From the NCBI GenBank assembly GCA_046757585.1, contig JBHHYR010000001.1, positions 3,354 through 67,353 on the forward strand: DNA of 64,000 bases. Reading direction: 5' to 3'. The position numbers and the translations under genes are program-made. Source of the stretch: Candidatus Binatia bacterium. Lineage in GTDB: Bacteria > Desulfobacterota > Binatia > HRBIN30. Shown one piece after another: positions 11,460 to 33,468 of this stretch; within the stretch, counting starts at the first letter, position 1; every line of letters starts with the position of its first letter. The notes under the pieces were generated by a model, which was given only the letters and a program-made list of their open reading frames with translations, had not been told where the DNA came from and ran no database searches.

Positions 11460-11741
11460 GGCTACCCGATCCCGAGAGCCTCCGTGCCTCTCGCGTGATC
11501 CCTTGCCAAATATGATGCTGGATGCGCTCCTGCGTTACAGCCCGTGCATGCCGGCAGCTGCGCAATGCGACTTGCGGAAGCACCGGGCACAGCCGGCCGC
11601 ATCCGCACGTGCAACGAGGCGGCTCGCCAGGGCATCAAACCCGCCGGCATGACGGGACGTCAGAGTGTACAAGCCGCGTGGCGTTTGGTGCCTTCTGGTA
11701 GGATGAAGGGCCAAGCCGCCGCCCAGGGGAGCAGACCGGGG

Positions 11742-12455
11742 ATGATGGTACGCGGCGCCTGGCTCCTCGCCACGCTCGCCGCTACCCTGTGTTTCCGGCC
11801 TGGACCAAGCGCGCTGGCTTCGGAACAGGGGCGCGTTCTGTTCCAGGAAGACTTTGAAGCAGGAATCAGCGACCGCTGGGTGGAGCGCGGGTTTCCGAGC
11901 ATCGAGCGGAAGAATACCTTCTCGCTGGCAACCGACCCAGTTGGAAATCACTACCTGAAGGTCGAAAGCGCGCAATCGGCCTCCGGCCGGGGCGTTCATC
12001 TGAGGTTTTCTCCGCGGGCGTGCTCCGATGTGAGTTGGCGCTGGATGGTGTCCCACGCAATCGCCACCGCTGATATCACGCGGCGCGAAGGTGACGACGG
12101 GGCTGCTAAGCTGTATGTGGTTTTCGATGGCCCATCGCTGTGGAACCCGTTCGACAAGCGCGTCATCGTCTATGTGTGGGACAACGCCGCACCAGTTGGT
12201 CGCGTGTTCCACAACGCCTGGCTCCCGGAGAAGGAGCGGATGCTCGTATTGGAGAGCGGAAACGAGAAGGCCGGCAGGTGGGTCACCGAACGTGTGCACT
12301 TGGCGCAAGATTTCGGTCGCGCGTTCCCGGGCGAAAGACCCGGCGAGGTCGAAGCACTGGCCTTCATGGCCGACACGGACAATACTGCCACACAGGTGTC
12401 AGCCGGCCTGGATGACTTGGTCATCCGTTGCAGGGCACCAGAGCAGAGGCACTAG
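11742..12455 (+). CDS. DUF3047 domain protein (secreted)
   Basis: Signal-like MMVRGAWLLATLAATL, then the conserved W..M..........DDGAAKLYVVF...RVIVYVWD pattern of DUF3047. The TAG stop is formed at the junction with the repeat element. Confidence 0.65.
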   Translation: MMVRGAWLLATLAATLCFRPGPSALASEQGRVLFQEDFEAGISDRWVERGFPSIERKNTFSLATDPVGNHYLKVESAQSASGRGVHLRFSPRACSDVSWRWMVSHAIATADITRREGDDGAAKLYVVFDGPSLWNPFDKRVIVYVWDNAAPVGRVFHNAWLPEKERMLVLESGNEKAGRWVTERVHLAQDFGRAFPGERPGEVEALAFMADTDNTATQVSAGLDDLVIRCRAPEQRH

Positions 12456-12706: not shown

Positions 12707-13384
12707 TCACGTGACCGGTTTGGTGCTCTGTTCCGACTGGAGCGTCTCACCGTTGGCGTTCTTCTCGCGTAGCAGATTGATCAGTCTCACTGGCCCGTGG
12801 TTGCTCAGGATTTCCTGAAACTGCGAGCGGTAGTTGGCAACCAAGCTCACGCCTTCGATGATGACGTCGATCGCGCGCCACCGACCGTTGCGCCTGCGCA
12901 GGCGGTAGTCAAGCGTGAAATCGCTAGCACCAGGCCGTATGACCTTGGTCTTCACCGTCCAGTCGCCGCCGGGCTCTTGACGGTCGCCAGTGACGACGAT
13001 GCGTTCATTGTTGTAGTTCTCGACGTTCTTGCCGTACGTCATCGACAGGAACTGCTTAAACTCCTCGACGAACCGCGCCTGCTGCGCAGGCGTCAACCGT
13101 TTCCAGTTCCGCGCGAGCACAAGTCGCGAAAGGGTTTTGAAGTCGAAGTACGGGTAGACGATTTCCTGGATCTTGTGGCGCTTCTGAGCCGCCGTCAGGT
13201 TCTGGTCAGCCAGTACCGTGATAACCCGATCGCTCGTGCGCTTGACCACCACAGTCGGGCTTTCTTCGGCAGGGACGCTGGCGGGGCGCAGGCAACAGAC
13301 GCCGAGCAACGCCAAGGCAACCAGCACAGCCGCGCCGCGGACCCGCCGCCTTTTCCGCAGTAGGTCGCCAGCTTGCGCGTTCAT
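12707..13384 (-). CDS. mlaC: MlaC/Ttg2D-family phospholipid-binding periplasmic protein
   Basis: Signal peptide plus YPYFDFKTLSRLVLARNWKRLTPAQQARFVEEFK..L..TYG and IDVIIEGVSLVANYRSQF, characteristic of the toluene-tolerance Ttg2D/MlaC family. Confidence 0.8.
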   Translation of the reverse strand: MNAQAGDLLRKRRRVRGAAVLVALALLGVCCLRPASVPAEESPTVVVKRTSDRVITVLADQNLTAAQKRHKIQEIVYPYFDFKTLSRLVLARNWKRLTPAQQARFVEEFKQFLSMTYGKNVENYNNERIVVTGDRQEPGGDWTVKTKVIRPGASDFTLDYRLRRRNGRWRAIDVIIEGVSLVANYRSQFQEILSNHGPVRLINLLREKNANGETLQSEQSTKPVT

Positions 13385-13590: not shown

Positions 13591-14559
13591 TCAACCCCCC
13601 CGTCTGCACGTGTGGGTCCAATCCAGCAGGACGGCCCCCGCGGCGAGCAGCCAGGCCCGGCGGGTGGACGGACCCGAGAGGACCCGCGCCGCGAGGGCGC
13701 GCCACGAGACGTCCGTTCCGGACCGCCTGCTCAGACGGATGCGGGCATCGATCCCGTGGTGGTCGGAATATGGCATGTCCCGCCACCAGTTACAGATGAG
13801 GTCCACCTCCGCCTCCGCACGCCATGCCGCATCGTGTCTGGCGAAGACGTAGTCTCTCCAGCGTCCGTGTTTGGCGTTGCGGTCGAAATGTGTCCCACAG
13901 TTGGGCAGCTGCGTGGTCAGATCCTGCCAGGCGAGGTGTTCGACCATCGTATCGTACAGCGGAGCAGCGGGACGGACATTGAAATCGCCCGCGATGAGCA
14001 CGGGCACGCCCGGCTCGACACTGGACGCCATGGTAGCAAGCTGTTGCACTTGGGCGCTCCGCACGGCGGCGTACGCGCCGCCCGACTGCAAGTGTGTGTT
14101 GAGAATGACGAGCGTCTGGCGCGAGGGGCGATGGCGCAGGTCGAGCCGTTGGATGCCCTTGTCCGCATACCCATCCCCGTGCCAGATGCGGTACTCGCAT
14201 TCCTCCGCGTCAAACTTCTCGAATCGCGCCTGCAGGACATCCCACTTGTGGGAAACGAACGCCAGCAGGCCGCCCTTGCGGATCCTCATGAAGAGCCCTG
14301 CGAGATCCACGAAGGGCAGAAACCACGGCGGAAAAGGTTTTGTGGGAATCCCGCCCACGCGCTGGTAGCGCGCACCCAGGGTGCGTTCAAGCAAGTCTGC
14401 ATCGGCCGGGTAGAAGATCTCTTGCAAAACCACAACATCAGGCAGCGGCTCGATATCGAGAATGCGCTGTGCCGCAGCCCGCATCCGGGGCTGGCGCAGC
14501 CGGGACGTGATCGGCGCGCCGTGCAGGTTCCAACAGATGAGCCGCACCCGGAGTGTCAT
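13591..14559 (-). CDS. endonuclease/exonuclease/phosphatase (EEP) family protein, sphingomyelinase/phosphodiesterase-like
   Basis: LICWNLHG...VVVLQEIF...LNTHL...IAGDFN...SDHHG are the canonical EEP catalytic blocks. The start could be 14559 (ATG) or 14595. Confidence 0.75.
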   Translation of the reverse strand: MTLRVRLICWNLHGAPITSRLRQPRMRAAAQRILDIEPLPDVVVLQEIFYPADADLLERTLGARYQRVGGIPTKPFPPWFLPFVDLAGLFMRIRKGGLLAFVSHKWDVLQARFEKFDAEECEYRIWHGDGYADKGIQRLDLRHRPSRQTLVILNTHLQSGGAYAAVRSAQVQQLATMASSVEPGVPVLIAGDFNVRPAAPLYDTMVEHLAWQDLTTQLPNCGTHFDRNAKHGRWRDYVFARHDAAWRAEAEVDLICNWWRDMPYSDHHGIDARIRLSRRSGTDVSWRALAARVLSGPSTRRAWLLAAGAVLLDWTHTCRRGG

Positions 14560-14916
14560 GATCGTCAGGCTACCGCCGGTGCCCCACAAATCCAATCCAT
14601 CCGCATGTGATCCGAGCTTGAGGGCGGGGGGACTGGAATTTGCGTTCGGTTTTTGCGATATGGGCGTTCCAGCAGCCAGACGGGAAGGTTCTTCAGATGA
14701 GCCCGGTTTCTAGTTCGAAAGGGGCAGGCCCCTTTCACCTTGAACGGAACGACCAAGCGGAAGCGAGACGGCGCGCGGCGTAGGCGCATAGCAGCTTCCG
14801 AGAGGTTGGGCGACACGCCACGACTGCACGATCATGATGGCCAACAGGAGGAAGGGGTCGACACCCCTATTGACAGAATGTGCGCAAGCTGGGTAACGAA
14901 AGCCGAGGGGGAGACT

Positions 14917-16278
14917 GTGGGGAAGGGGCTCAAACAGACGCGCGCCGGCCGGCAGCCTGTGAAGAGAAGAGCCGCCACGCCAGAGCGCGTCGAGCGCAAG
15001 AGTTTCCGAACGGCCTTCCTGGAGCCGTTTCGTCCGTTACTGGAACAAATTGATGCTGCGCGGCAGGTGAACGTATACCCGTTCTACCCGTGCGTCGAGC
15101 CGCGGTCACCCTCGAACGGCTCTGCGGAGGCCCGCCAGGAGATTGTCCTGGTGGCGAACGATTACCTCGGCCTCGGGATGGATGGGCGTGTCCGCGACGC
15201 GGCACGCGAGGCGATTGCACGGCTGGGAACGAGCCGCTGTGCTTCCCCGCTGGCCGGCGGGTACACCGCGCTCCACCGCACCATCGAAGCCCGCCTCGCG
15301 GCGTTTCTGGGTCAGGAGGCCGTCGCGCTGTTTGCGTCCGGCTACCAGGCGAACGTCGGCATCATCTCGGCGCTGATGCTGCGCGGCGATCTGATCGTCA
15401 CCGACTTGTTCAATCACGCATCGATCGTGGACGGGGCGCGCTTGTCCGGGGCTGATGTCCGAGTGTTTCAGCACAACAGCCCGACACATCTCAGGCGCGT
15501 TCTCGAGCAGCATGCCAAGGGCCGGCGCGCCCTCGTGATCGTGGAGGGAATCTACAGCGCTGATGGAGACATCGTGTGCCTGCCTGAGATCTGTGCGGTG
15601 GCACACGCGCACCGGGCGTTGGTCATGGTCGACGAAGCGCACTCCCTCGGAGTCCTGGGACAGGCGGGTGCCGGCGCCGCCGAACATTTCGGCTGCCTGC
15701 ACGAGGTCGACCTCATCATGGGCACGATGAGCAAGTCACTGGCCAGCGTCGGCGGGTTCATCGCCGCCGACAGGCACTTGGTCGAGGTCATCCGGCACAA
15801 TGCCCGCTCTCTCATCTTCTCCGCGGCCTTGCCGCCCGCCGGCGTGGCGGCAGCGTTGGTTGCCTTGGAGATTCTCCAGGCCGAGCCGCAGCGACGCGAG
15901 CGGCTGTGGCACAACGCACGACGAATGGTCGGCGGCCTGAGGACACAGGGGTTCGACACGATGCGCAGTGAAACGCCGGTGATCCCCATCCTGGTCGGTG
16001 ATCCGGTACGGACGCTCGAGTTCACCGCCCGACTGCGCGACCGCGGCGTCCTGGTGTGCCCCGCCATCCCGCCGATGGTGCAAGGCCACCTCAGCCGGAT
16101 ACGCGCACATGTGACGGCCGCGCACGACGACGCCACCATCGATGCAGCGCTCACGATCATCGGTGACGTCGCAGCCGCTATTGGATTTCATGAGCACCGG
16201 CCGCGCCGGCAGCCTACCGCCCTCGCGGACGCCGTGCTGTCCGCACCACGTCCGGTATCACCGGCCAGCCCGCGATGA
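14917..16278 (+). CDS. alpha-oxoamine synthase family PLP enzyme, serine palmitoyltransferase-like
   Basis: ANDYLGL, SGYQANVG, IVEGIYSADGD, VDEAHSLG and the PLP-lysine block GTMSKSLASVGG. Start proposed at GTG 14917, behind a GAGGGGGAG RBS; the six-frame ORF begins at TTG 14740. Confidence 0.85.
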   Translation: MGKGLKQTRAGRQPVKRRAATPERVERKSFRTAFLEPFRPLLEQIDAARQVNVYPFYPCVEPRSPSNGSAEARQEIVLVANDYLGLGMDGRVRDAAREAIARLGTSRCASPLAGGYTALHRTIEARLAAFLGQEAVALFASGYQANVGIISALMLRGDLIVTDLFNHASIVDGARLSGADVRVFQHNSPTHLRRVLEQHAKGRRALVIVEGIYSADGDIVCLPEICAVAHAHRALVMVDEAHSLGVLGQAGAGAAEHFGCLHEVDLIMGTMSKSLASVGGFIAADRHLVEVIRHNARSLIFSAALPPAGVAAALVALEILQAEPQRRERLWHNARRMVGGLRTQGFDTMRSETPVIPILVGDPVRTLEFTARLRDRGVLVCPAIPPMVQGHLSRIRAHVTAAHDDATIDAALTIIGDVAAAIGFHEHRPRRQPTALADAVLSAPRPVSPASPR

Positions 16279-16294
16279 CCAGGCGGTCAACCCG

Positions 16295-16675
16295 ATGAGT
16301 CAACTCCACGTGGTCCCCCGCCGATCTCGGCCGACGTTGCCGACGATTGCGCAGGTGAAAGAAACGCTCCGACGCCTGATTGAAGAGCAGGCGGGCATTC
16401 CCGCCTCCGTCATCCGGGACGATTCCACCATCGAGGGAGACCTTGCGATGGATTCGCTGTCGTTCATCTCTCTCCAAGTGGCAGTGGAAGAAGTCTTCGA
16501 CATCACCTGCGACCCGGCGGATATCGAGGCGCGGAACCGTTTCGATGCAATCGCGGCGTTCATTCGCGAGCAGACCGGCGCCCGGAACGGCGCGGCACCG
16601 CAGCCACCGGCAGGTGGCGCTCGGCAGGGTGCATCGGGGCGCCGCGCGCGCGGTAGGCCCCGCTCCAAGAGCTGA
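16295..16675 (+). CDS. acyl carrier protein (dedicated), with Arg/Gly-rich tail
   Basis: GDLAMDSLSFISL carries the DSL phosphopantetheine-attachment serine. The gene lies between the oxoamine synthase and the AMP-ligase. Confidence 0.8.
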   Translation: MSQLHVVPRRSRPTLPTIAQVKETLRRLIEEQAGIPASVIRDDSTIEGDLAMDSLSFISLQVAVEEVFDITCDPADIEARNRFDAIAAFIREQTGARNGAAPQPPAGGARQGASGRRARGRPRSKS

Positions 16676-16687
16676 GCGCTACACAAC

Positions 16688-18517
16688 ATGGTTCGGAAGA
16701 AGACAGCGGGGCTGCCCGGGTGGCAGCCAGGGGGAAAAATGGGCACAACCAAGACACCGGCAGTGCTCCCCGTCACCGGGGCGGCATTGGTTCCCGCGGC
16801 AGACACGTTGGTCGAATGCTTTGCACAGCAGGCACGGGACCGCGCCAGGGTCGCGTTCTGGCTCGAGCGCGTCGACGAGCTTCCGCGAACGGTCAGATGG
16901 GCGGAGCTGGCAGACTCTGCCGCCCAGGCCGCCCTGCGCCTGCGTGCACTGGGCGTGGAGCGAGGCGACCGCGTGCTGCTGGTGTTGCCGACCGGTGCCG
17001 ATTTCGTCTTCCTCTTTTGGGGTGTGTTACTGGCAGGGGCCACACCGGTTCCGGCCTATCCTCCGGCCGGCTGGCGGCAACTCGCGTCATTTTCCGACAT
17101 GCTAGCAGGCATGGCAGCGATGACTGATGCCCGCCTCGCGGTCGTCCCTGACGCTCTGCGGGACATGTTGGCAGCCAGCCCCCATCAGGAACTCCGGAAC
17201 ACGAGCGTCATCGCCCCGGAGCAACTATGGGCCACCGCGGTGAGCGCTGCGGCGCTGCCGCCCGCAGCCGCCCCCGGGGATTTCGCTTTGATCCAGTTCT
17301 CCTCGGGCAGTACCGGGGCGCCGCGCGGCATCCGTCTCACCCAGACGAATCTCCTCTCCAACATCCGCGCGTTCGCAGATCGCATGCGCGTGCGGCGCGA
17401 AGATGCACTGGTGACGTGGTTGCCCCTGTATCATGACATGGGACTGATCGGCACCATGATCGCCCCGCTGATCGTGGGGATGCCGCTGATCTTGATTCCT
17501 CCCACGGACTTTCTGCGTCAACCAGGCTTCTGGCTACGGACCATGGCGCAGTATCGAGCCACCATTAGCGTGGCACCTCAGTTCGCTTACAGCCTGTGTG
17601 CAAGGAAAGTCGACCCACACGAACTGGCAGGGGTGGACTTGTCGCCGCTGCGCATCCTCTTAAACGGGGCGGAACCGATCCGTCCGGACGCGGTGGCGGC
17701 GTTCGAAGAACGCTACCGGGTGCTCGGGCTCCGGCGCGGCGTGGTCACTCCCTGCTACGGTCTGGCTGAGGGCACCCTAGCCGTCTGCATGCGGCCGCCG
17801 GGTGGCAGGCTGTTTGTCAAGCACCTGTACGGCAACGGTGAAGGACCCGCGTCGAAAGCGGACGGTATGGCGTACGGCGGACCCGTCGTTTCCGTGGGGC
17901 CCCCACTGGCAGGCACCGAGGTGCGCATCCGCGCTCCACGGGGTGGATGGCATCCCGAGGGACGGGTGGGTGAAATCTGCGCTCGCGGGTCGTCGGTCAG
18001 CCAAACGCAGCTCACGCATGACGGCGTTGCACCGACGGTCGACCGGGACGGCTGGTTGCACACAGGAGACCTCGGGTTTGTTTCTCACGGGGAACTCTTC
18101 GTGACCGGACGACAGAAAGACCTCATCATCATCGGCGGGCGCAATCTCTATCCGCAGGAAATCGAGGAAGAGGCAGGCAGACTCCCAGGGTTTCGCACCG
18201 GCCGTGTCGCCGCCTTCGGTGTCCTGGACCCGGACCGTGGAACCGAGGTGCTCGTGGTGACCGGGGAGACCAGCGGGACACCCAACAGCGACCCGACGGT
18301 GGCAGTCAGTCACCTGCGCCGGCAACTCCTGCACCGCTTCGGCGTGGCCCCGTACGACATTGTGTTGCTGGGCCGCGGCCAGCTCCCTGTCACCACCAGT
18401 GGGAAGCTACGCCGGTTTGAAGCCCGGGCGGTTTACGAGCGTAACTTGTTTTCCGATGTAAGCTACCGGCTACGTCCGGTGCCAGTCGAACGGCTCGCGG
18501 AGGCCGGCCAGCGGTGA
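16688..18517 (+). CDS. fatty acyl-AMP ligase / acyl-ACP synthetase (AMP-binding family)
   Basis: AMP-binding core FSSGSTGAPRGIRLTQTNL, YGLAEG, TGDLGF and a GRQKDLIIIGGRNLYPQEIE block typical of the FAAL subfamily. Confidence 0.85.
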   Translation: MVRKKTAGLPGWQPGGKMGTTKTPAVLPVTGAALVPAADTLVECFAQQARDRARVAFWLERVDELPRTVRWAELADSAAQAALRLRALGVERGDRVLLVLPTGADFVFLFWGVLLAGATPVPAYPPAGWRQLASFSDMLAGMAAMTDARLAVVPDALRDMLAASPHQELRNTSVIAPEQLWATAVSAAALPPAAAPGDFALIQFSSGSTGAPRGIRLTQTNLLSNIRAFADRMRVRREDALVTWLPLYHDMGLIGTMIAPLIVGMPLILIPPTDFLRQPGFWLRTMAQYRATISVAPQFAYSLCARKVDPHELAGVDLSPLRILLNGAEPIRPDAVAAFEERYRVLGLRRGVVTPCYGLAEGTLAVCMRPPGGRLFVKHLYGNGEGPASKADGMAYGGPVVSVGPPLAGTEVRIRAPRGGWHPEGRVGEICARGSSVSQTQLTHDGVAPTVDRDGWLHTGDLGFVSHGELFVTGRQKDLIIIGGRNLYPQEIEEEAGRLPGFRTGRVAAFGVLDPDRGTEVLVVTGETSGTPNSDPTVAVSHLRRQLLHRFGVAPYDIVLLGRGQLPVTTSGKLRRFEARAVYERNLFSDVSYRLRPVPVERLAEAGQR

Positions 18518-18539
18518 GAGGCGGGGCGCCAGCCCGCAC

Positions 18540-19493
18540 TCAGCGAAAAGCCCGCTTGCGATAGAGACGCCAGAATACGCTGCCCAAGGCAAGCAAACGA
18601 GGGCGTCTGCTACGCCAACTGGGATCTGCCCTCACACCGGAGTGGCGCTCGATCTTCCAGAGCACGTATTCGACACCCCCTTTGAAGGTGAAGGCTCCTT
18701 TGAGAATGCGCAGCAACGAGAGCAGCTTGCCTTCAGCGCGGCGCAGTCGCCAGCTGTGGCAGGCCCCCCACCGCGCTAGGGCTGGCATGCGCACTACCAC
18801 CATTGGCGCGCCGGACACCGTGTCGATCGACGTCGGATAAGGCAAAGCAGCCAGCGCAGCCTGCGTGACACGTTCGTACCGGAGGGGGGCGGCATCATAG
18901 AGACGGGCGGGGGTCTCTCCCCGTTCTGCCCGCACCTCGGAGTGGTAACTTTCCCGCAACACCCGTTTCCATAGATCCGCGATCCGGAAATGCTGCGGCA
19001 CGAGCGCAACACCCTGCCGGATGAAGGTCACCACCGCCGTGCTCAAGGCGTTGGCCACAGCCTCCGCAGCCGCTGCATTGCGCGTGTAAACGAGCGCGCA
19101 CGGCTGGGCAAAGCGGGCCCAAAAGTACGGATGAAAACAGCGAGCTGACGTGTAGCGGGCAAGACCAGCCAGGGACACCACCGCGTACTTCGCGCGCACG
19201 GGACCACTCTCCCCAGACGCCTCGATGTAGAAGACGTTCGGCGGAAGCAGCGCGTTCAACAGCGCCCAGATCCGACGCGTGTAGAAATGCCGGTAGTCGT
19301 CGACAAGGACATAGAAGTCCAGAACCCCATTACGATCGTCACCGGTCCGCAAGCAAGAGCCGTAAAACAGAATGGCCTGGACCGCCCTGCCGTGGCGCCG
19401 GCGAATTGACTCAGCAAGCACCTGCGCCCCAGCCGCAACGGGCTGGCGCAACTCTTCGGCGATCAACTCAACCAGGGCGGGTTGGGGCTCCAA
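18540..19493 (-). CDS. nucleotidyltransferase-fold protein, Tam41/Mmp37-like (putative lipid-phosphate cytidylyltransferase)
   Basis: FYGSCLRTGDDRNGVLDFYVLVDD (an NTase G-S...D-x-D-like signature), followed by VRAKYAVVSLAGL....HPYFWARFAQPCALVY. This resembles the Tam41 KYGVVS...LYLAGRLQKPV region. TTG start, 6 nt after the kinase stop. Confidence 0.45.
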   Translation of the reverse strand: MEPQPALVELIAEELRQPVAAGAQVLAESIRRRHGRAVQAILFYGSCLRTGDDRNGVLDFYVLVDDYRHFYTRRIWALLNALLPPNVFYIEASGESGPVRAKYAVVSLAGLARYTSARCFHPYFWARFAQPCALVYTRNAAAAEAVANALSTAVVTFIRQGVALVPQHFRIADLWKRVLRESYHSEVRAERGETPARLYDAAPLRYERVTQAALAALPYPTSIDTVSGAPMVVVRMPALARWGACHSWRLRRAEGKLLSLLRILKGAFTFKGGVEYVLWKIERHSGVRADPSWRSRRPRLLALGSVFWRLYRKRAFR

Positions 19494-19499
19494 TGCACC

Positions 19500-20585
19500 C
19501 TACCATCGCAGAAACAACGCCGAGTGGCCACCGCGCAGGACGACGGGCCGGCCCGGCTCAGCAGTGAACAATTCCCCGTCGAGCGTGAATCCGCCATCCA
19601 GATGCAGGAGCACCTCGTGCACGTTGCGACTCACGTAGCCGAACTCCGGGCGGACGTACCGGTTCGGCCTGCCGCGCATCACCGACCAGGCGGCTCGAAC
19701 GCAATGCTGCGGCGCATAGGTGAGGGCGCTATAGCGGAGTGGGCCGGCGCCCCGACCCCAGAACGGCCGCAGACCGAGGAGCAGTCGCTCCAGCGTTGTC
19801 GCCAGGATCCCAAAATACGCGTTGGCCGCCAACGCCTCGTGGTCCAGCCGGCCCCAGGCTTGCAACGGCGGAAACAATGCACCGCCACGTCCCAGCATGG
19901 CTCTGGCCAGGAATACGGCTAGGGCAAGCCCCGGTCCCGCATCGCGGCGCATGCCCAGCGGGTGGATGCGCTGGCGACAAAAGCGAATCCCGTGGTAGAT
20001 CGCTCCCGCCCCGAAGAACATGCCAAAGATGGGCTCCGCGGACGGCGTCACGTCCACGCGCATGACCGCCCGTCGCACGACTACGCCGTCGAGCCGGCCC
20101 GACCGGGCAGAGCCGAGAAGATGTTCCAGGGCTCTGATCGGCCGCTGCCCTGTGCCGACGTCGCCGGCAATCATGTTCGTCGTCCCTCCCGGCAGCACGG
20201 CGAGCAACGGAAAACGTTCCAGGTGCGGCTCCCGGAACAGCGCGGTCAGCACCGCTTGGACTGTGCCGTCCCCACCGTTGACGACAATGATCTCGCTACC
20301 CTCACGTGCGAGCCTACCAGTGGCCGCCTCGATGTCTGCCGGTTGCTCGACCTCGTAGTGCGGGACACCCGGAGTTCCCCCCATGGCCCGCAAAATGGAC
20401 TGAAAGCCGTTGCTGCGCAGATTACGCCCGCTGGCGGGATTGTTGATTGCTCCGACGCGAATGGGGCGTCCGGAATCGAAGGGACGCAGGATCGCCGGTC
20501 GGGCCGGCACCGGCGCGCTACTGGGCGGGGTCTCGACTGCCCGGCGATGCGCCTGGAATCTGGCGAAGCGCGCTAGCGAGCTCAT
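19500..20585 (-). CDS. DAGK-catalytic-domain lipid kinase (diacylglycerol/sphingosine/ceramide kinase family)
   Basis: NPASG....IIVVNGGDGTV...LAVLPGGTTNMIA are the DAGK_cat motifs. The internal ATG at 20585 overlaps the upstream stop (ATGA); the six-frame ORF is over-extended to 20909. Confidence 0.8.
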   Translation of the reverse strand: MSSLARFARFQAHRRAVETPPSSAPVPARPAILRPFDSGRPIRVGAINNPASGRNLRSNGFQSILRAMGGTPGVPHYEVEQPADIEAATGRLAREGSEIIVVNGGDGTVQAVLTALFREPHLERFPLLAVLPGGTTNMIAGDVGTGQRPIRALEHLLGSARSGRLDGVVVRRAVMRVDVTPSAEPIFGMFFGAGAIYHGIRFCRQRIHPLGMRRDAGPGLALAVFLARAMLGRGGALFPPLQAWGRLDHEALAANAYFGILATTLERLLLGLRPFWGRGAGPLRYSALTYAPQHCVRAAWSVMRGRPNRYVRPEFGYVSRNVHEVLLHLDGGFTLDGELFTAEPGRPVVLRGGHSALFLRW

Positions 20586-21832
20586 CCCAGTCCCATTACG
20601 TGTGGCCGAACCGTGGGGTGTGGCACAAATGGCCTGGACACACCGGACGCGTCGCCCGCCACCCCCTGCGGCACCGCGAGCCACGGGCGTAGTGGACCGC
20701 ATGTGGTGCGCCGATGCACCGCCATGGTCAGCCGCACACTGAGAAACACCGCGCACGTCAGAGTCCAGGTGGCCACCGCCATGATCCCAACGTCTGGCGC
20801 GAGCAACCCGCCCGTAAGCAGGGTGAGATTCGGATTCCGGCGTGCCAGGACGAGCCGGGAATACGAATCGATCGGACGCCAACAAAAGAGCGAGAACCTC
20901 CCCACCCACAACGTAAACGCGCCTTCAACCAGACGGCCGACAACGTACCCAACCACAACCGTTCCCAGCACGAGATCAAGGGTCAGTCCCTCCAACGGCG
21001 CTTGAAACTCCTCGAGCCCCATTCCCCACGCGAGGTACCAGAAGGGCGGGTGAATGATGTCGAGCCCGTGATCAAGGGCATGGCCGATGGACGTCGAGCC
21101 AACCGTCACCCGTGCCAGCTTGCCGTCAACGGTATCCAGAAAGGTCATCAACCAGGCCAAGCCGAGGCCGAACCCATAGCGCCCCGTGGCAAACAGGAAC
21201 GTGACCATGACGACGAGGAGCACGCTGAGGATGGTCACATGGTTGGGACGAATGCCCGCGCGGGTACAGAGGTGGGTGGCCCAGCGCGCGGGCGCCGGCC
21301 AGAGCCATTTCGTGACAAAATCAGTCACACCCTTATACGAGCCGTTGAACAGATGGCGCTCGAGCGCCGCCCGACGGTCCGGGCCGATGCGCACGACAGT
21401 TGCAGGCTCCGACCTGAGCAGCTTTTCGTCGTACGCTTCAGACAGGGCATCCGGGAACTTTATCTGGATTCCCGGCATCTCCTGGGCGCCTGCCTCCCCG
21501 TGCAGCCAGCGCCGGGCCACACACGCACGTGCGCTCGACACGTGCGCCGCGACGCGAATTGCTCGGCCACCTTCGTGAACCTGCAGGCCGACATTTGGGG
21601 CACCGACAAGGTCTCTGATGACCCGTTCGTCATACAGATAATCGGCCCGGACGAAAATGACGGTAGCCGCAGGATCCAGCTCGTCGGTTTCGCTGGCCAG
21701 GCCAGCCACACCCGCACGCTCGAACACACGCTGCAGCCGCTCCGCGGACGACAGCCCCCACAGGCGAACGTTGCACTCGCCCACGATACACCCGTACACC
21801 TTCGTTGCATGATCGCGGCCTGGTGACGCCAT
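20582..21832 (-). CDS. CDP-alcohol phosphatidyltransferase with about 170-aa N-terminal cytoplasmic domain
   Basis: DTVDGKLARVTVGSTSIGHALDHGLDIIH fits the CDP-alcohol phosphotransferase signature D-G-x2-A-R-x7,8-G-x3-D-x3-D. Several TM helices follow it, and a soluble domain precedes it. Confidence 0.8.
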   Translation of the reverse strand: MASPGRDHATKVYGCIVGECNVRLWGLSSAERLQRVFERAGVAGLASETDELDPAATVIFVRADYLYDERVIRDLVGAPNVGLQVHEGGRAIRVAAHVSSARACVARRWLHGEAGAQEMPGIQIKFPDALSEAYDEKLLRSEPATVVRIGPDRRAALERHLFNGSYKGVTDFVTKWLWPAPARWATHLCTRAGIRPNHVTILSVLLVVMVTFLFATGRYGFGLGLAWLMTFLDTVDGKLARVTVGSTSIGHALDHGLDIIHPPFWYLAWGMGLEEFQAPLEGLTLDLVLGTVVVGYVVGRLVEGAFTLWVGRFSLFCWRPIDSYSRLVLARRNPNLTLLTGGLLAPDVGIMAVATWTLTCAVFLSVRLTMAVHRRTTCGPLRPWLAVPQGVAGDASGVSRPFVPHPTVRPHVMGLG

Positions 21833-22060: not shown

Positions 22061-22101
22061 GCGGCATTACTCCTGATGAGATTCATCAGGAGTAATGCCG
22101 C
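22061..22101. repeat. perfect inverted repeat (19-bp arms, 3-nt spacer)
   Basis: GCGGCATTACTCCTGATGA-gat-TCATCAGGAGTAATGCCGC, read directly. It lies in the lower-GC gap between the lptG stop (22175) and the CDP-alcohol transferase start (21832). Confidence 0.95.
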
Positions 22102-22174: not shown

Positions 22175-23239
22175 TCAGCGTACTCGCTGCATCAGCCACA
22201 GGCCAAGCGCCAGCGCCAATGCTCCCGGCAACGTGGCGCTGGCGATCGGATCGAGGCCAAAGACCAGGCCGAACTCTGCAAAGGTCTGGTTGAACATCTG
22301 GAAGCCGATGCCGAGCAAGGCTCCGAGGACGATCCGCTGTCCCACCCTCACTGAGGTCCCAGCGACGAGTACCAGAGGCACAGCCAAGAACATCATGATA
22401 CCCGTGATCAGAGGCAGCGTGATCCGCTTCCAAAATGCGATCTGGTAGCGGCGTGGGCTCTCGCCCCGTGCCCGCAGCGAACGGATCGACCTGTACAGGT
22501 CGTACAGTGACAGGTATTCCGGCGGAAAGGACAAGAGCCGCAGCTGTCGCGGGCTCACAAACTTCTTCCACACCCGCGTGGCCACTTTCCGGGTAGTCAC
22601 CACGTCGTTGCGGATCCGGCCCTCCACCAGTTCCTCGAGCGTCCACTGGTGGTTCGCGTAGGAGGCTGTACGCGCATAGGCGAAGGAGTCCAGCCGGTGC
22701 TGCGCATCAAACTGGTAAACGTACAGATCGTGCAGCTGTGCGCCCGGCAACGGCGTGCGGACGTTGATGAAGCGAGAGCCGTCTCGCGTCCAAAAGCCAT
22801 TCGCTGTGCTCAGCGCTAAACCGCCCGACAGCACAATCGAGCGTTGTGCCGCGGCTTGTTGCGCCAGCGGGGCGGCAGCGAACTCGCCGACCCCGACCGC
22901 CGCCACGACGAGCCAGGCGGTCACCTTCATGACCGACCAAATCAGGCGACCCGGCGCGATGCCTGCGGCCCAGACGGACACCAGTTCGTTCCGGCTCGCG
23001 AGGGTACCAAGGGCACTGACGCCGCCAAGCAAGGCGGCAGCCGGAAAGAGTTCGTAGGCCTCGCTGGGCAGTGTCATGAAGACGAACCATAACGCCTGTC
23101 GCATGCCGTACTGCGCTACGCCAACGTCTTCGAGCTCATGCATCAAGTGAATCACGGAAAAGATCGCGAGGAGGGCAGCGAGGGCAGCGAGGAAGTCCGC
23201 CGCCACTACAGTTGCAAGGTAGCGATCGAGCGTTTTCAT
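22175..23239 (-). CDS. lptG: LPS export ABC transporter permease LptG
   Basis: MKTLDRYLA... N-terminus, six predicted TM helices and a periplasmic beta-jellyroll region, typical of the YjgP/YjgQ family. Its ATG overlaps the lptF stop (ATGA). Confidence 0.8.
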   Translation of the reverse strand: MKTLDRYLATVVAADFLAALAALLAIFSVIHLMHELEDVGVAQYGMRQALWFVFMTLPSEAYELFPAAALLGGVSALGTLASRNELVSVWAAGIAPGRLIWSVMKVTAWLVVAAVGVGEFAAAPLAQQAAAQRSIVLSGGLALSTANGFWTRDGSRFINVRTPLPGAQLHDLYVYQFDAQHRLDSFAYARTASYANHQWTLEELVEGRIRNDVVTTRKVATRVWKKFVSPRQLRLLSFPPEYLSLYDLYRSIRSLRARGESPRRYQIAFWKRITLPLITGIMMFLAVPLVLVAGTSVRVGQRIVLGALLGIGFQMFNQTFAEFGLVFGLDPIASATLPGALALALGLWLMQRVR

Positions 23240-24438
23240 CGATCGCGAGCAGCGGCGCGATCGGCCTGCCATCGCGCCACTCGGTGACGCAACCGGCCGG
23301 GCGTGCGGCGCCACCACCGAGCAGCAGGCACGGCGGCAAAGCCGGCGAGGATCCCAGCCAGACACAGCGCGTGCACACCCCAGATGCCTGGAAAAGGCGG
23401 CAGTGTCCCGTGTGCTACCCAATCCTTGGCCGCGCCCAGGAGATGGCGGTAGGCCATGTAGAGAAGGATGGCGGCAAACAGCTTGGCGTATTTTCCACGG
23501 TACGGGTCCACCCGGCTGAGCGGCAATGCGATCAGCACCAGGAGGAGGGCCGACACGGGCATCGCCAAGCGCCACTGCAGTTCGGCGATATCCGCTGGGG
23601 CGTCCGACCGCAGGAGCGCGAGGGTGGAGCGCGCCTTTTGCCGTCGCTCACCCGCCGTCTCGGCCTGCAACGCGGTACGGATCGTGAGCGTTCGGTAGCG
23701 TGTGATTTCATACCTGCCCGTTTTCGGATGCAGGTCGTAGCGGTATCCATCCACCAGCGTGAGGAAGCGGTAGCCGGTAGCTTCATCCACATGTTCCGCG
23801 GCGTAGTTCGAAACCAGAATCGACACCTGCCCGTCGTGTCGATCTTGCAGGAACACGTCTCCCATGCGTCCGTCGGCTGTGCGGTGGTCCGCGAAAATGA
23901 CCTGCGCACCTCTGCGGCCGATCTCGTAAAACCGCCCTGGACTCAACGCACCAACGTCCAAGTCGCGCGCGGCATGAGTCTTTACATGCTCGAACCGGCC
24001 GGCCGCCCAGGGACGCACGGAGAGCGACATCCCGCCGATCACGGTTGCGGCAAACAGCGCAAACCCGAGCACGATGTAGGGAACACGGCCCGGTGCCACG
24101 CCGCACGCTTCCAGGGCCGTGATTTCGTTGTCCTGGAAGAAGCGGCCTAAGCCGAGCAGCACCGCAAGGTAGAGCACGACCGGCAAGAGAGAAGGAAAGG
24201 CCATGATCGTTCTGAGCGCGAGCAGATGCAGGATGACGTTCGCCGGCAAGGCGCCTTCCGCCGCATCGGTCAGGAGGCTGCCGAACCGGCGGATGAGAAA
24301 AATACCGAGAACGACGGCCAGGACGCCGACGAAGTGAATCAGGATTTCCCCGATCACGTAGCGCGGTAGGACCGGCAGCAACCTTCCGGCACCCACGCGT
24401 CCGACCCAACGTGGCGATACGCTCCCTGGGCAGGTCAT
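23236..24438 (-). CDS. lptF: LPS export ABC transporter permease LptF
   Basis: LPRYVIGEIL... YjgP/YjgQ-family pattern, paired with lptG. Its ATG overlaps the upstream stop (ATGA). Confidence 0.78.
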   Translation of the reverse strand: MTCPGSVSPRWVGRVGAGRLLPVLPRYVIGEILIHFVGVLAVVLGIFLIRRFGSLLTDAAEGALPANVILHLLALRTIMAFPSLLPVVLYLAVLLGLGRFFQDNEITALEACGVAPGRVPYIVLGFALFAATVIGGMSLSVRPWAAGRFEHVKTHAARDLDVGALSPGRFYEIGRRGAQVIFADHRTADGRMGDVFLQDRHDGQVSILVSNYAAEHVDEATGYRFLTLVDGYRYDLHPKTGRYEITRYRTLTIRTALQAETAGERRQKARSTLALLRSDAPADIAELQWRLAMPVSALLLVLIALPLSRVDPYRGKYAKLFAAILLYMAYRHLLGAAKDWVAHGTLPPFPGIWGVHALCLAGILAGFAAVPAARWWRRTPGRLRHRVARWQADRAAARDR

Positions 24439-25643
24439 GTCGCGCGCACGACGAACAGCGCGATCCCCAGGGTGACCAACGCCGCGGAGGCGAATCGGCG
24501 GAGGCGGCCTTCCATGGAGACAGCCGTGAAACGGCGGAAGAGGCCGAACAGGGCCAGCACCAATGCCAGAGCCACCAGCTGACCGGCCTCTACGCCGAGG
24601 TTGAAGCCGGCGAGCACGGGGACCAGCGCACCCCGTCCGATCTCCAGGTCGCTGATCGCGCCCGCGAAGCCGAGGCCGTGAATGAGACCAAAGGCCGAGG
24701 CGGCCAACCAGGGGAGCGCGCGTGGATAGAGCCGTCGTTGGCTGGCACGCATGTGCGCCAGGGAGAACAGCATGACGCCGAGGAGCGCAGGCGCAGGGAC
24801 CGACAGCCAGCCGCTCGCGCTCGCGGCGAGGGCCACAATGGCAAAGGCCACGAGCGCGGCGCGGCCGTGCGCCAGCAGCGGTTCGGCCGCCACTACAGCG
24901 ACGCTCAACCCGATGAGCGCTTCGACCGCGGCCGCGCGGTCCACCGTGATCAGCCGCCCCAGCGCGAGACCCAGCGTGAGGCTGTGGCCCAAGGTAAAGC
25001 CGGTCACGGCGCGCACCACCGCACCGAGTGACTCGGCACTGAGAAGCAGCGCCGCCAGGAAGGCGAGATGATCGTAGCCGGTGGCGATGTGCGTGACCCC
25101 GAGCAGAAAGAAGCTGGCCAGACCGTGGTCGCCCAGTGCCCGGCCCCGGTGAGCAAGCGAGAGGGTTCGCTGTGTATCGGACAGCACCGCTTCGTGACTC
25201 GTGACCGTCCCGCCCGCGGCACGCACGCGGACCCGCGCGATGTGCATGTGCGACGGCGCCTGGTCAAAGAACGCGCCGAACACAATGGTATCCGCAGAGC
25301 CACCGGGGCAGCGACTCTGCCAGCGATACACGAGCGCATTCGCCGGACCGGGGAGTCGTTCGGGATGCGATACGGCCGGACACGGCCTGTTCCGGACCAG
25401 GGCAGACACGTGCGCGACGAGGTAGGCACCCAGTGCCTCCTCTGGTGCCGAACCGGGCACCAGGTCGCCCAGCGTCCCGACGCCCATCGCGGGCGCCGCC
25501 CGGGCGATTTCGAGCCACGGCACCTTGAGCCGCACGGTGACCGTCTCGCCCGCGATGTCCCAGATGGAATAGGAGGTGCTCCGGGCATGTGCGGACACCT
25601 GAGCGGGCCAGAGTAGCGGCACGCCGAACAGGAGCGCCGCCAT
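24435..25643 (-). CDS. HupE/UreJ-family membrane protein with extra N-terminal periplasmic domain
   Basis: C-terminal half: GVTHIATGYDHLAFLAALLL...GFTLGHSLTL...GLIHGLGFA, the HupE/UreJ signature. The start is taken at ATG 25643 (signal-like MAALLFGVPLLWPAQVSA). The 619-aa six-frame ORF overlaps the next gene. Confidence 0.7.
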   Translation of the reverse strand: MAALLFGVPLLWPAQVSAHARSTSYSIWDIAGETVTVRLKVPWLEIARAAPAMGVGTLGDLVPGSAPEEALGAYLVAHVSALVRNRPCPAVSHPERLPGPANALVYRWQSRCPGGSADTIVFGAFFDQAPSHMHIARVRVRAAGGTVTSHEAVLSDTQRTLSLAHRGRALGDHGLASFFLLGVTHIATGYDHLAFLAALLLSAESLGAVVRAVTGFTLGHSLTLGLALGRLITVDRAAAVEALIGLSVAVVAAEPLLAHGRAALVAFAIVALAASASGWLSVPAPALLGVMLFSLAHMRASQRRLYPRALPWLAASAFGLIHGLGFAGAISDLEIGRGALVPVLAGFNLGVEAGQLVALALVLALFGLFRRFTAVSMEGRLRRFASAALVTLGIALFVVRAT

Positions 25644-25662
25644 ACACCACGACTGGCACCAA

Positions 25663-26538
25663 TCAACCGCCAACGTCGCCTCGAATGATCGCTGCCTGTG
25701 CGCGTAGGCGCGCCAGCGCCGTGGCCACCGCCCGTTCGCGCGCCTCGCGTCGCCAGTCCGCAAGCACTGCAGCACGCAGGCGCGAAAAATCGGCCGCTGG
25801 CTCCACCACGCGGTCGCTGACGAGCAAGACACGGTAGCCCCGCCCCGACCGGATCGGCGCACTGGTGGCACCAGGCGCCAGCTCGGCCGCCGCGTGGGCT
25901 GCCGTTGGCCCGAGATACTCGACCAGCTTGCCGAGCGGTAGCAGTCCGTCTGGGAGCGGTACCGGGGGCCGGTCGCCCAAGCGGGCAGCAACCTCCGCAA
26001 ACGGCGCGCCGGCGGCCAGCGCGCGCGCGGCTTCAGCCGCCCGGGCGCGGCCGGCGGCGTCGTGCTGGGCGTCCGCCACGTCCACGAAAATTTGGCGCAG
26101 CGCGACGCGCGCCTGGCCGCGGTAGCGCTCGCTATTGCGCTGGAAATAGGCACGCAGCGCTGCATCGTTCGGATCGGCCACTTCCTGCGCGCCGGCAATC
26201 GAGTCGAGCATGGTCCGCACCAGCATGTTGCGTACGACCCGATCGCGTTCCGCCAGACCCAGCGCGAGCGCGCGCTGGACGAGTATTTCCTCATCGATCA
26301 GCTTGTCGAGCGCCAGCCGGCGGCCCGCCGCGGGCAGCCGGCCGCGCCGCGGGGTGACTGCCACCGCGTCCAGCAGGGCACGCGCAATGGGTTTCCCATT
26401 GACCAGCGCCACGACCCCAGGCGGGAGGACGCCCGAAGACGCGGCCGGCGCGACGAGCCCGTACGCACCCAAGGCAAGGCCAGCCAGCATCGCCAGGGGG
26501 AGCAGCCAGCGCTCGAGCGCAGACGGCCGGCGCGTCAT
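25663..26538 (-). CDS. SurA/PpiD-like periplasmic chaperone / parvulin-type PPIase-domain protein
   Basis: TM anchor, then VNGKPI....LIDEEILVQRA (a SurA N-domain-like segment) and a parvulin-like segment, ALRQIFV....A..LAAGAPFAEVA. Its ATG overlaps the upstream stop. Confidence 0.6.
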   Translation of the reverse strand: MTRRPSALERWLLPLAMLAGLALGAYGLVAPAASSGVLPPGVVALVNGKPIARALLDAVAVTPRRGRLPAAGRRLALDKLIDEEILVQRALALGLAERDRVVRNMLVRTMLDSIAGAQEVADPNDAALRAYFQRNSERYRGQARVALRQIFVDVADAQHDAAGRARAAEAARALAAGAPFAEVAARLGDRPPVPLPDGLLPLGKLVEYLGPTAAHAAAELAPGATSAPIRSGRGYRVLLVSDRVVEPAADFSRLRAAVLADWRREARERAVATALARLRAQAAIIRGDVGG

Positions 26539-28899: not shown

Positions 28900-30021
28900 T
28901 TACCTCGCGGCTCTGTGAGGTATCGGTCGGGGGCTGGTCTGTGGTCGCTGCCGCTGCATGACCGGCCGGCTTTGCCGGGCCACCCACGGGCTGTATCCCT
29001 TGAAGCGCCTCGGAGCGTAGAGCCACACGCGCCTGCACAGGCCGCGCCAGGCCGCACGGCGCAACGGCGACCGCCACAAGCCTTGCCAAGCCGCCCACCA
29101 GAGCTTCGTCGGTGCATACCAGCACACCTTGAGCCAGAACAACCCGAGCACCTGCGAGAACGCTGGCTCTGGATAGCAGCGCGCAATCTGGTTGGCAGCA
29201 CGCAGCTGGAGCAGCCACGCTCTGGCCCAATCGAGATACGCGCGACCCGGCGTGAAGCCCATCTTCTGCATGCGGCGCAGGAGGTAATGCCGTTGGAGGT
29301 CGCTGGCGGTAAACCGGATGCCGAGGCCGGTCAGCTGTGCGGCAAAAATAGTGAGGCGCCGCTCTGCTATCTGCGTTCCCCTACGCTGGGTCGTGCGGCC
29401 TCCGTGCATCCTCCGCCGCACCAGAACTTCCGGCAGAGTTGCAAGCTTGTGGTCCGCTACGATGCGGACCCACAGGTCGAAATCCGAGCCCAGGTCGTAC
29501 TCCTCATGATGGCCGTACTGCCGTATGACGGCCGTGCGAGCCATACTCGCGGAATTCTCCAAACAGGAGCGGAAGAGCCGTTCGGCTGCAATGTCATCCG
29601 CCGCGATGGGCTTGCGCTTGACCCGTCTCAGCGAGCGGCCCTGCTCATCCATGCGCCTGATCCAGGCACCCACTGCGGCGTACTCGCGGTGGCGGTCCAG
29701 GAAAGCCACCTGCTTGGCAAGCCGCTCCGGATAGGCGCAGTCATCGCTATCCAGAAACGCCAGGTATTCGCCACGTGCGAGTTCAATACCTGCATTGCGC
29801 GTTCTGGGGATGCCGAGGTTGGCCGTGTTACAGACCAGGCGAATACGCCGGTCGCGGTACGAGCGCACAATCTCCCGCGTTGCGTCAGTCGAGCCGTCAT
29901 CGATCACGAGCAGCTCAAAATCCGTGAAGGTCTGGACCAGGATACTGTCGATCGCGTCGGCGACGTAGCGTTCCCGATTGTATACAGGGATCAGCACCGT
30001 GACCTTTGGTGATCTATTCAT
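28900..30021 (-). CDS. glycosyltransferase family 2
   Basis: VTVLIPVYNRERYVADAIDSILVQTFTDFELLVIDDGSTD and LDSDD (DxD) are the GT2 (GT-A) signatures. Confidence 0.85.
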   Translation of the reverse strand: MNRSPKVTVLIPVYNRERYVADAIDSILVQTFTDFELLVIDDGSTDATREIVRSYRDRRIRLVCNTANLGIPRTRNAGIELARGEYLAFLDSDDCAYPERLAKQVAFLDRHREYAAVGAWIRRMDEQGRSLRRVKRKPIAADDIAAERLFRSCLENSASMARTAVIRQYGHHEEYDLGSDFDLWVRIVADHKLATLPEVLVRRRMHGGRTTQRRGTQIAERRLTIFAAQLTGLGIRFTASDLQRHYLLRRMQKMGFTPGRAYLDWARAWLLQLRAANQIARCYPEPAFSQVLGLFWLKVCWYAPTKLWWAAWQGLWRSPLRRAAWRGLCRRVWLYAPRRFKGYSPWVARQSRPVMQRQRPQTSPRPIPHRAAR

Positions 30022-31534: not shown

Positions 31535-31536
31535 GG

Positions 31537-32457: not shown

Positions 32458-32511
32458 GGTGTCGCCAGATGCACGCGCATGCGAGCCTGCTTGTCCGCAC
32501 GGATCTGAACG

Positions 32512-33288: not shown

Positions 33289-33299
33289 GGCGGGCAAGT

Positions 33300-33468
33300 C
33301 TAGCAGTCCGTCGAAAAACAGGCGCCGTAGCGAGGGCGAGCGATTTTCCGTCAGATCAAGGCGCCGAACCGGAGGCAAATCCGATGATTTTGTTGAGGAT
33401 TCGGCAACGCAGAGCTGGCGGAAAATAGCCGCCCGCAGTAGGGGCCCTGTTTTTCAACGGGCTGCTGG
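33300..33468 (+). mobile_element. MITE-like 169-bp element, copy 2
   Basis: Near-identical to 12452-12620, in the same orientation. It fills the gap between the ELM1-family gene stop (33484) and the oxygenase start (33288). Confidence 0.75.

Follow-up and report, generated by a model that had tools for sequence, protein, structure and literature searches.

Spt-like genes, which mark the start of bacterial sphingolipid synthesis, have been reported from 40 phyla (PMC11334938), and the Spt/AcpR/AasR system of Escherichia coli BL21(DE3) has been characterised biochemically (PMC9386255). The closest described system to the locus discussed here is the phosphosphingolipid locus CC_1152-CC_1168 of Caulobacter crescentus, which makes ceramide phosphoglycerate and ceramide diphosphoglycerate (PMC11324152). 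In this work, a 64-kb stretch of DNA from a Candidatus Binatia metagenome-assembled genome with a G+C content of about 65%, hereafter called the window, is compared with that locus. The window carries an island of lipid genes at 13591-21832 that is probably a Caulobacter-type locus in its Binatia form, from which a phospho-ceramide lipid of the anionic ceramide phosphoglycerate type would be made and exported to the outer membrane. This assignment rests on gene content, on domains and folds, on homology to annotated loci and on conserved synteny; the enzyme activities in the Binatia organism, the formation of CDP-ceramide, the nature of the head group and the role of a neighbouring phosphodiesterase are inferred from these.

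In Caulobacter, CC_1152 encodes a nucleotidyltransferase (NTase) now named CpgD, CC_1153 a MobA/CofC-like protein and CC_1154 bCerS, followed by LptG2 (CC_1155), LptF2 (CC_1156), a HIT protein (CC_1157) and a calcineurin-type phosphoesterase (CC_1158). CC_1159 is CpgA, a PF01066 protein whose N-terminal part forms a cytoplasmic domain, and CC_1160 is the ceramide kinase CpgB. Spt and AcpR are encoded by CC_1162 and CC_1163, CerR by CC_1164 and AasR by CC_1165 (PMC11324152). The product of CC_1161, CpgC, carries the IPR015222 Tam41 domain, and an NDP-activated ceramide has been proposed for this pathway (Olea-Ozuna et al. 2024, PMC11324152). A genetic requirement for CpgA and CpgC has been shown in Caulobacter. 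CpgD makes CDP-glycerate, which is the proposed donor for CpgA (PMC12275187).

The island in the window consists of three transcription units. On the minus strand, an EEP phosphodiesterase gene (13591-14559, PF03372) is found at one end. On the plus strand, a contiguous triad (14878-18517) encodes an SPT-like alpha-oxoamine synthase (open reading frame 14740-16278, likely start at 14878 or 14917, PF00155), a dedicated AcpR-like acyl carrier protein (ACP; 16295-16675, PF00550, with the DSL serine motif) and an AasR-like AMP-ligase of the fatty acyl-AMP ligase (FAAL)/acyl-ACP synthetase type (16688-18517, PF00501), the ACP gene lying 16 nt past spt and 12 nt ahead of the ligase gene. Facing this triad, a minus-strand trio is transcribed in the order of an AF2299-type CDP-alcohol phosphotransferase (20582-21832, PF01066, CpgA-like) that has a cytosolic domain at its N terminus, a DAGK_cat lipid kinase (19500-20585, PF00781 with the GGDG motif, CpgB-like) and a 317-aa Tam41-like nucleotidyltransferase (18540-19493, CpgC-like, recognised by profile and fold). 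Inspection of the sequence showed that the transferase stop and the kinase start have an ATGA in common, and that the TAG stop of the kinase is followed after 6 nt by the TTG start of the Tam41-like gene. The open reading frame map, the translations and Pfam confirm the initial annotation of this DNA for the seven genes and their strands, for the gap of 6 nt and for the ATGA overlap. Two points in it are corrected: the order in which the trio is transcribed is the one given above, and the description of the island as self-contained did not hold up, as an LptF-type (23236-24438, minus strand) and an LptG-type permease gene (22175-23239, minus strand) immediately precede the trio in the same orientation, and bCerS-like, MobA-like and CpgD-like genes are present at 41.3-44.2 kb.

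The Caulobacter and Binatia loci have much in common. Both hold Spt, ACP and acyl-ACP synthetase genes, a DAGK_cat kinase gene followed by a Tam41-like gene, and ahead of these a PF01066 transferase gene whose product has a cytosolic domain at the N terminus; genes for a GNAT acyltransferase, a MobA-like NTase, a cytidylyltransferase and LptF/LptG are also common to both, and the order lptFG, cpgA, cpgB, cpgC, spt is the same. In contrast to Caulobacter, the window locus lies in two blocks 20 kb apart, and the spt operon and the trio are transcribed towards each other. CerR, a HIT protein, a calcineurin-type phosphoesterase, a Wzx flippase and LptC2 were not found in the window, which has instead an EEP gene of the sphingomyelinase family and a gene for an MsbA-like ABC exporter. 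In addition, its Spt is nearer to the Bacteroidetes/delta-proteobacterial than to the alphaproteobacterial subgroup (PDB scores; PMC9386255).

Two further loci were used for comparison. Plasmid p1 of the alphaproteobacterium Roseomonas mucosa carries a complete Caulobacter-type set, in which genes for a HIT protein and a metallophosphoesterase are also present. Its first part encodes, in order, an NTP transferase, a hypothetical protein at the bCerS position, a desaturase, two LptF/G permeases, a HIT protein, a metallophosphoesterase, a CDP-alcohol transferase and a diacylglycerol kinase; its second part encodes a hypothetical protein at the CpgC position, GT39, a PLP aminotransferase, an ACP, a flippase, GT4, ELM1/GtrOC1, an SDR, a FAAL and a cytidylyltransferase. 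The components of the window are 33-52% identical to those of this locus. The spt locus of E. coli was matched in 4139 of 5426 complete genomes, and in one example (L087, NZ_CP116100.1 3781087-3792448) it holds spt, an ACP gene, an epimerase (CerR), a FAAL gene, a second lptF/lptG pair, yghO and a flippase-like gene. Identities to the window are 36% for Spt, 33% for AasR, 47% for YghO against the GNAT protein and 29-31% for LptF/G. This one E. coli stretch has CerR, whereas kinase, Tam41-like and CDP-alcohol transferase genes are absent from it.

The plus-strand triad is supported as a predicted sphingolipid-initiating Spt/ACP/acyl-ACP synthetase set, which is what the initial annotation had proposed. 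The best PDB match of the synthase is the bacterial SPT of Sphingobacterium (S. multivorum), with 302 bits. Lower scores were obtained for a BioF/Kbl-type alpha-oxoamine synthase (251 bits), Kbl (234 bits), the alphaproteobacterial SPT of Sphingomonas (230 bits), ALAS (202 bits), BioF (188 bits) and CqsA (134 bits), so that by PDB bit score the protein is closer to SPT than to the Kbl, BioF, ALAS and CqsA references. The synthase is also 40% identical to the Spt of the Roseomonas locus. The AMP-ligase matches the NCBIfam fatty acyl-AMP ligase model with 406 bits and is 37% identical to the Roseomonas FAAL.

The 317-aa protein is identical to NCBI ACE5I7_00100, encoded on a contig of 85 kb, and has more than 2,300 homologues. 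Taken alone, it scores below the gathering threshold of the Pfam family PF09139 (Tam41_Mmp37), at 12.3 against 24 bits (E=0.11). Among 30 aligned homologues, 15 match PF09139 at E<=0.01 (best E=3.3e-9) and no other family is matched. The best PDB match of the family profile is Tam41 of Schizosaccharomyces pombe (E=0.002); the motifs KY.V.S, Y..R..QP and SY...R align with Tam41, and the NTase signature G-S...D is invariant in the family. An AlphaFold2 model (pLDDT 90) gave Tam41 as the top Foldseek match (E=5.6e-10, TM 0.52/0.58). The model has the Tam41 fold, with an NTase domain and a winged-helix/helical domain. The top four matches are all Tam41 chains, with E-values from 5.6e-10 to 5e-9, and the next family, ANT(4'), follows at 8e-5 with a TM of 0.29. 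The earlier naming of this protein as a Tam41-like NTase is thus borne out by the family profile and by the modelled fold, and at the level of the predicted fold it is correct. Compared with the mitochondrial CDP-diacylglycerol synthase Tam41/Mmp37 (PDB 6IG2/6IG4), the fold and the aligned motifs are the same, while identity is about 14% and the window protein stays under the Pfam threshold. Tam41 acts on phosphatidate, whereas the genetic context of the window protein points to ceramide 1-phosphate as the putative substrate. The protein is 38% identical, over 95% of its length, to the Roseomonas protein at the CpgC position.

The exact phrase 'CDP-ceramide' occurred in none of the literature searched, and a search for Tam41 together with bacterial sphingolipids turned up only mitochondrial reviews. 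To our knowledge, CDP-ceramide is a liponucleotide that has never been demonstrated in any organism. The novelty that had been claimed for a route through such an intermediate in bacteria falls away all the same, as the Tam41 domain of CpgC and an NDP-activated ceramide had already been described and proposed for Caulobacter (PMC11324152).

The distribution of the module was followed by scanning one genome per species, and relatives of the Tam41-like protein turned up in at least 587 of these genomes. Loci from 80 species were examined, 37 of them with full 10-kb flanks, and some comparisons were made over 85 loci. The 80 loci span Binatia, Desulfobacterota, Nitrospirota, Rokubacteria, Calditrichota, Myxococcota, Alpha- and Gammaproteobacteria, among others, and one of the loci (L077) is from a cultured strain, Desulfoprunum benzoelyticum DSM 28570. 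Within 10 kb of the Tam41-like gene, the 37 full-flank loci hold the kinase 33 times, the CDP-alcohol transferase 30 times, LptG 29 times and LptF 27 times; the bCerS-like GNAT gene is found 28 times, the MobA-like gene 29 times and the gene for the 247-aa CpgD-like protein 28 times. FAAL (17) and Spt (12) are found less often, and the EEP gene not at all. The usual order is the GNAT, MobA-like and NTase genes as a group, then lptF, lptG, transferase, kinase and Tam41-like gene. Gene content and order agree with those described for CC_1152-CC_1165 (PMC11324152). The kinase adjoins the Tam41-like gene in 74 of 85 loci, and in 52 of the 80 species loci the trio has lptG upstream of it in the same orientation.

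These counts bear on how the trio works. The initial annotation had proposed a linear scheme, a closed three-enzyme route in which the kinase makes a lipid 1-phosphate, the Tam41-like enzyme turns this into a CDP-lipid, and the transferase uses the CDP-lipid as its donor. Several observations agree with this scheme: the trio is translationally coupled and occurs together in 30 of the 37 loci, Tam41 chemistry yields a CDP-lipid, and CDP-alcohol transferases such as phosphatidylinositol-phosphate (PIP) synthase, structures of which are among the fold matches of the window enzyme, use lipid-linked CDP donors. However, the kinase/Tam41-like pair is found without the transferase in 7 of the 37 loci, and the transferase varies along with the CpgD-like gene and not with the Tam41-like gene: the CpgD-like gene is present in 27 of 30 loci with the transferase against 1 of 7 without it (Fisher p=2e-4, not corrected for phylogeny). 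Also in Caulobacter, CC_1160 alone brings back ceramide phosphoglycerate in a CC_1159/CC_1160 double mutant, and CpgA is needed for the second head group only (PMC11324152). Because of this co-occurrence and because CpgA is dispensable for the first head group, the transferase looks like the partner of a soluble CpgD-like cytidylyltransferase. The last step of the earlier scheme, in which the transferase consumes the Tam41 product, is probably wrong, and the linear scheme as a whole is considered unlikely.

The modelled fold of the transferase also argues against a lipid-linked donor. The protein carries the full CDP-alcohol signature D-x2-D-G-x2-A-R-x8-G-x3-D-x3-D, and D234, D237, G238, A241, R242, G251, D255 and D259 are invariant in a 30-sequence alignment. 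Its model (pLDDT 85) superposes on AF2299 over both the N-terminal cytosolic and the membrane domain (E=1e-10, TM 0.58/0.70), followed by IPCT-DIPPS and the PIP synthases. This closest fold, AF2299/IPCT-DIPPS, belongs to enzymes that act on soluble CDP-alcohols. AF2299 and IPCT-DIPPS of Archaeoglobus fulgidus are CDP-alcohol phosphotransferases with an N-terminal cytosolic nucleotidyltransferase-like domain, and the window enzyme is like them in two-domain architecture, fold, the complete CDP-alcohol motif and a weak N-terminal sequence match. It differs in that identity is 14% and a ceramide phosphate lipid of the membrane is the presumed acceptor. A Pfam search of the N-terminal domain detected no NTase match. 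In comparison with the Roseomonas transferase, identity is 33% in the N-terminal and 45% in the C-terminal part.

In some of the compared loci, other genes are found next to the kinase/Tam41-like pair. In the related contigs L001 (10972-11940), L004 (12913-13884) and L066, the pair has as its neighbour a Lipid_DES/FA_desaturase gene resembling sphingolipid delta-4-desaturases, and no homologue of this desaturase is present in the window. An ATP-grasp (ATPgrasp_ST) gene lies between lptG and the kinase in L001 (7331-8623), L007, L012 and L030, and it replaces the CDP-alcohol transferase gene in the transferase-less loci L001, L007 and L030, which hints at an alternative head-group chemistry.

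The kinase itself gave only weak PDB matches to YegS/DgkB and is 34% identical to its positional orthologue in Roseomonas. Its substrate could in principle be a glycerolipid, and the trio would then be a CdsA-independent route in which diacylglycerol is phosphorylated, CDP-diacylglycerol is formed from phosphatidate and a phosphatidyl-alcohol such as phosphatidylinositol-phosphate is made, recycling diacylglycerol from envelope biogenesis. Tam41 is a phosphatidate cytidylyltransferase, the best NCBIfam matches of the transferase are archaetidylinositol-phosphate and PIP synthases, far below the cut-off, and CpgB, a proven ceramide kinase, phosphorylates diacylglycerol about equally well in vitro (PMC10331486). 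In vivo, however, deletion of cpgB leaves the phosphatidate of Caulobacter unchanged (PMC10331486), and it is the ceramide phospholipids that are lost in cpg mutants (PMC11324152). Most loci are without Spt within 10 kb, and the initial annotation had regarded a trio that mostly lacks an SPT-like neighbour as evidence against a sphingolipid function. This is formally what was found, with Spt near the Tam41-like gene in only 12 of the 37 loci, but the sphingolipid reading is not thereby refuted, because 28 of the 37 loci carry a bCerS-like gene. Spt/FAAL genes accompany the module in about a third to a half of the loci, and in the window the trio abuts Spt/ACP/FAAL and a sphingomyelinase-family gene. 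A glycerolipid route is therefore regarded as very unlikely.

The position of lptF and lptG allows for another explanation, namely that the trio decorates or recycles a lipopolysaccharide (LPS)-related lipid as part of a lipid A/LPS modification module, with the Spt triad as an unrelated neighbour. Both permeases belong to PF03739 and pass the equivalog cut-offs of the LPS-exporter models (LptG, TIGR04408, 322 bits; LptF, TIGR04407, 315 bits), in most loci they precede the trio and share its strand, and glycosyltransferase and sulfotransferase genes are found further along the window. On the other hand, PGAP gives the paralogues in the E. coli spt locus the same LptF and LptG names, and the window LptF is 31% identical to its paralogue there. 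In Caulobacter, LptF2/G2/C2 are genetically tied to anionic sphingolipid, being deletable only when anionic sphingolipid synthesis is absent, and LptF2/G2 bind LptB (bioRxiv 10.64898/2026.04.12.717747). Furthermore, the conserved module is without a lipid A enzyme, and a strong hairpin parts lptG from the trio. An LPS modification module is for these reasons a highly improbable reading of the locus.

The lptF stop and the lptG start also overlap in an ATGA, and this lptF/lptG pair, co-oriented with the trio, is the only such pair in the window. The hairpin, with a perfect 19-bp stem, lies at 22061-22101 on the minus strand in the 340-bp spacer between lptG and the transferase gene. It has a dG of -39.9 kcal/mol and a z-score of -8.2, is unique in the window and has no U-tract; it might serve as an attenuator, as an element for RNA stability or as a palindrome to which a protein binds. 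The results of promoter and terminator scans did not rise above chance.

The second block of the locus holds further counterparts of Caulobacter genes. A bCerS-like GNAT acyltransferase of the YghO family (41313-42536, plus strand, 434 aa, start uncertain, weak PF00583 match) is 47% identical to E. coli YghO (E=1.8e-115), which adjoins the E. coli spt operon, and 50% identical to the Roseomonas protein at the bCerS position. It is followed by a MobA-like NTP transferase gene resembling CC_1153 (42578-43420, plus strand, start uncertain, PF12804), with 39% identity to the Roseomonas 'NTP transferase domain-containing protein', and by a gene for a 247-aa CpgD-like cytidylyltransferase (43468-44211, minus strand, PF00483/PF12804), which is 52% identical to the Roseomonas 'phosphocholine cytidylyltransferase family protein' at the CpgD position. 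Against PDB, the CpgD-like protein matched only generic sugar-phosphate nucleotidyltransferases and no CpgD entry. The initial annotation had noted that no bCerS- or CerR-like gene is adjacent and had concluded that the product may not be a classical ceramide. The part on CerR stands for the window as a whole, while a bCerS-like gene is present 20 kb away; the conclusion on the product does not follow, because this bCerS-like gene is in the window.

Two further observations concern this region. The MobA-like reading frames of the window and of Roseomonas remain similar for about 115 nt upstream of their starts, where the 3' end of the bCerS-like gene is read in another frame (42416-42536; Roseomonas L088 3669-3783). 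Either the two genes really have a long overlap or the alignment is artefactual here. An MsbA-like ABC exporter gene (39351-41201, minus strand, PF00664 and PF00005) next to the block is a candidate flippase gene with weaker linkage; homologues with 43-60% identity are found near the module in 13 of 85 loci and also next to an EEP homologue on an independent contig.

The EEP protein gave no PDB match as a single sequence. With a family profile, the best match is human SMPD2 (E=1.9e-31, 112.6 bits), followed by bacterial sphingomyelinases C (about 1e-18, 58-68 bits), with nocturnin and TDP2 at 54 bits or less. The family is small, with 489 representatives, and the EEP catalytic residues are invariant in the alignment. 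The window protein thus shares the family profile and the catalytic residues with neutral sphingomyelinases such as human SMPD2 and the bacterial sphingomyelinase C/beta-haemolysin. Unlike the bacterial toxins, it has no signal peptide and is therefore predicted not to be a secreted toxin. The gene was found in none of the 85 compared loci, including the 37 with full flanks. A homologue with 45% identity is present on an independent 83-kb contig, between a block of histidine phosphatase, lptFG, transferase, kinase and Tam41-like genes and an ABC exporter gene, and two other homologues have unrelated neighbours. The suggestion that this enzyme is a matching headgroup phosphodiesterase is supported by its sphingomyelinase family. 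The gene lies outside the conserved module. It is best read as an occasional accessory, because it recurs in one independent locus only, and plausibly acts as a phosphosphingolipid phosphodiesterase. Adjoining the EEP gene in the window are a gene for the phospholipid-transport protein MlaC (12707-13384) and a DUF3047 gene (11544-12455), and MlaC, DUF3047 and EEP-type genes are also found all three together on a separate Logan contig (L086).

Several points weigh against assigning the locus to the Caulobacter type. The best NCBIfam model of the synthase is SPT (NF047600), at 375 bits and below the cut-off of 640, in a near-tie with the bioF model at 363 bits (cut-off 426). The orthology to Caulobacter is bridged through the Roseomonas locus and published descriptions. 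The locus is split over 30 kb, and neither Pfam nor tblastn with E. coli and Roseomonas proteins found a CerR-type reductase, HIT protein, metallophosphoesterase, LptC2 or Wzx-type flippase in the window. Finally, as LptF and LptG pass the cut-offs for the canonical exporter, they are possibly a housekeeping pair. The use of these cut-offs as a mark of a housekeeping pair was rejected, since PGAP gives the E. coli spt-locus paralogues the same names, so that passing these models cannot tell a housekeeping from a sphingolipid pair.

Based on the Caulobacter model, the following pathway can be proposed for the Binatia locus. The acyl-AMP ligase would load a fatty acid onto the dedicated ACP, and Spt would condense the acyl-ACP with serine to 3-ketosphinganine. 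The YghO/bCerS-like GNAT enzyme encoded at 41.3-42.5 kb would N-acylate 3-ketosphinganine, and the keto group would be reduced by a reductase encoded outside the window. The CpgB-like kinase would then form ceramide 1-phosphate, which the Tam41-like CpgC homologue would activate or convert, in the simplest case with CTP donating CMP to give CDP-ceramide, yielding the first head group. In parallel, the CpgD-like cytidylyltransferase would make a soluble CDP-alcohol, which is CDP-glycerate in Caulobacter, and from this donor the AF2299-type CpgA-like transferase would add a further phospho-head-group. LptF and LptG, together with LptB, would extract the lipid for transport, and the sphingomyelinase-like EEP enzyme may hydrolyse the head group for turnover.

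Other genes surround the locus. At 24435-26634, two long minus-strand open reading frames overlap in different frames and would encode a 619-aa HupE/UreJ_2 protein and a 323-aa PPIC-type rotamase. Between the two blocks, the stretch 28900-37907 holds genes for a GT2 glycosyltransferase, two sulfotransferases, a 2OG-Fe(II) oxygenase, two ELM1/GtrOC1-like putative glycosyltransferases and a histidine phosphatase, and is syntenic with the related Binatia-like contigs L006, L001 and L007. An ELM1/GtrOC1 gene is present in the Roseomonas sphingolipid locus as well, and the window ELM1-like protein is 42% identical to its product. This stretch may have a role in decorating the sphingolipid or the LPS core, possibly via sulfation. 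Further along, the window carries a B12-binding (51736-53073) and a DUF3641 (61406-62839) radical SAM gene, with an ECF sigma factor gene (53505-54131) and cytochrome c genes (54922-56807) between them, and these appear unrelated to the lipid locus.

The locus is a further example of the Caulobacter-type pathway that is already under study, in a phylum where it has not been pointed out before, and not a new kind of pathway. A bolder and tentative possibility is that the Tam41-like enzyme makes CDP-ceramide and that the eight-gene module, consisting of the bCerS-like gene, the two NTase genes, lptF, lptG, transferase, kinase and Tam41-like gene, is an old and widespread outer-membrane sphingolipid system. 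Its LptFG might then be the sole pair in many lineages, with one Lpt machine carrying both LPS and sphingolipid.

At the level of gene content, the anionic-sphingolipid pathway of Caulobacter and its Lpt-type export genes are hereby extended to Binatia. Desulfobacterota, Nitrospirota and other uncultured lineages, for which sphingolipids of the outer membrane have received hardly any attention, commonly carry this module as well. That the transferase co-varies with the CpgD-like gene provides independent comparative support for the Caulobacter model in which CpgD supplies CpgA, and the Tam41-like step is the remaining biochemical question, the chemistry of which is already being pursued in Caulobacter. 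In addition, the sphingomyelinase-family neighbour is a candidate for the turnover of phosphosphingolipids in bacteria.

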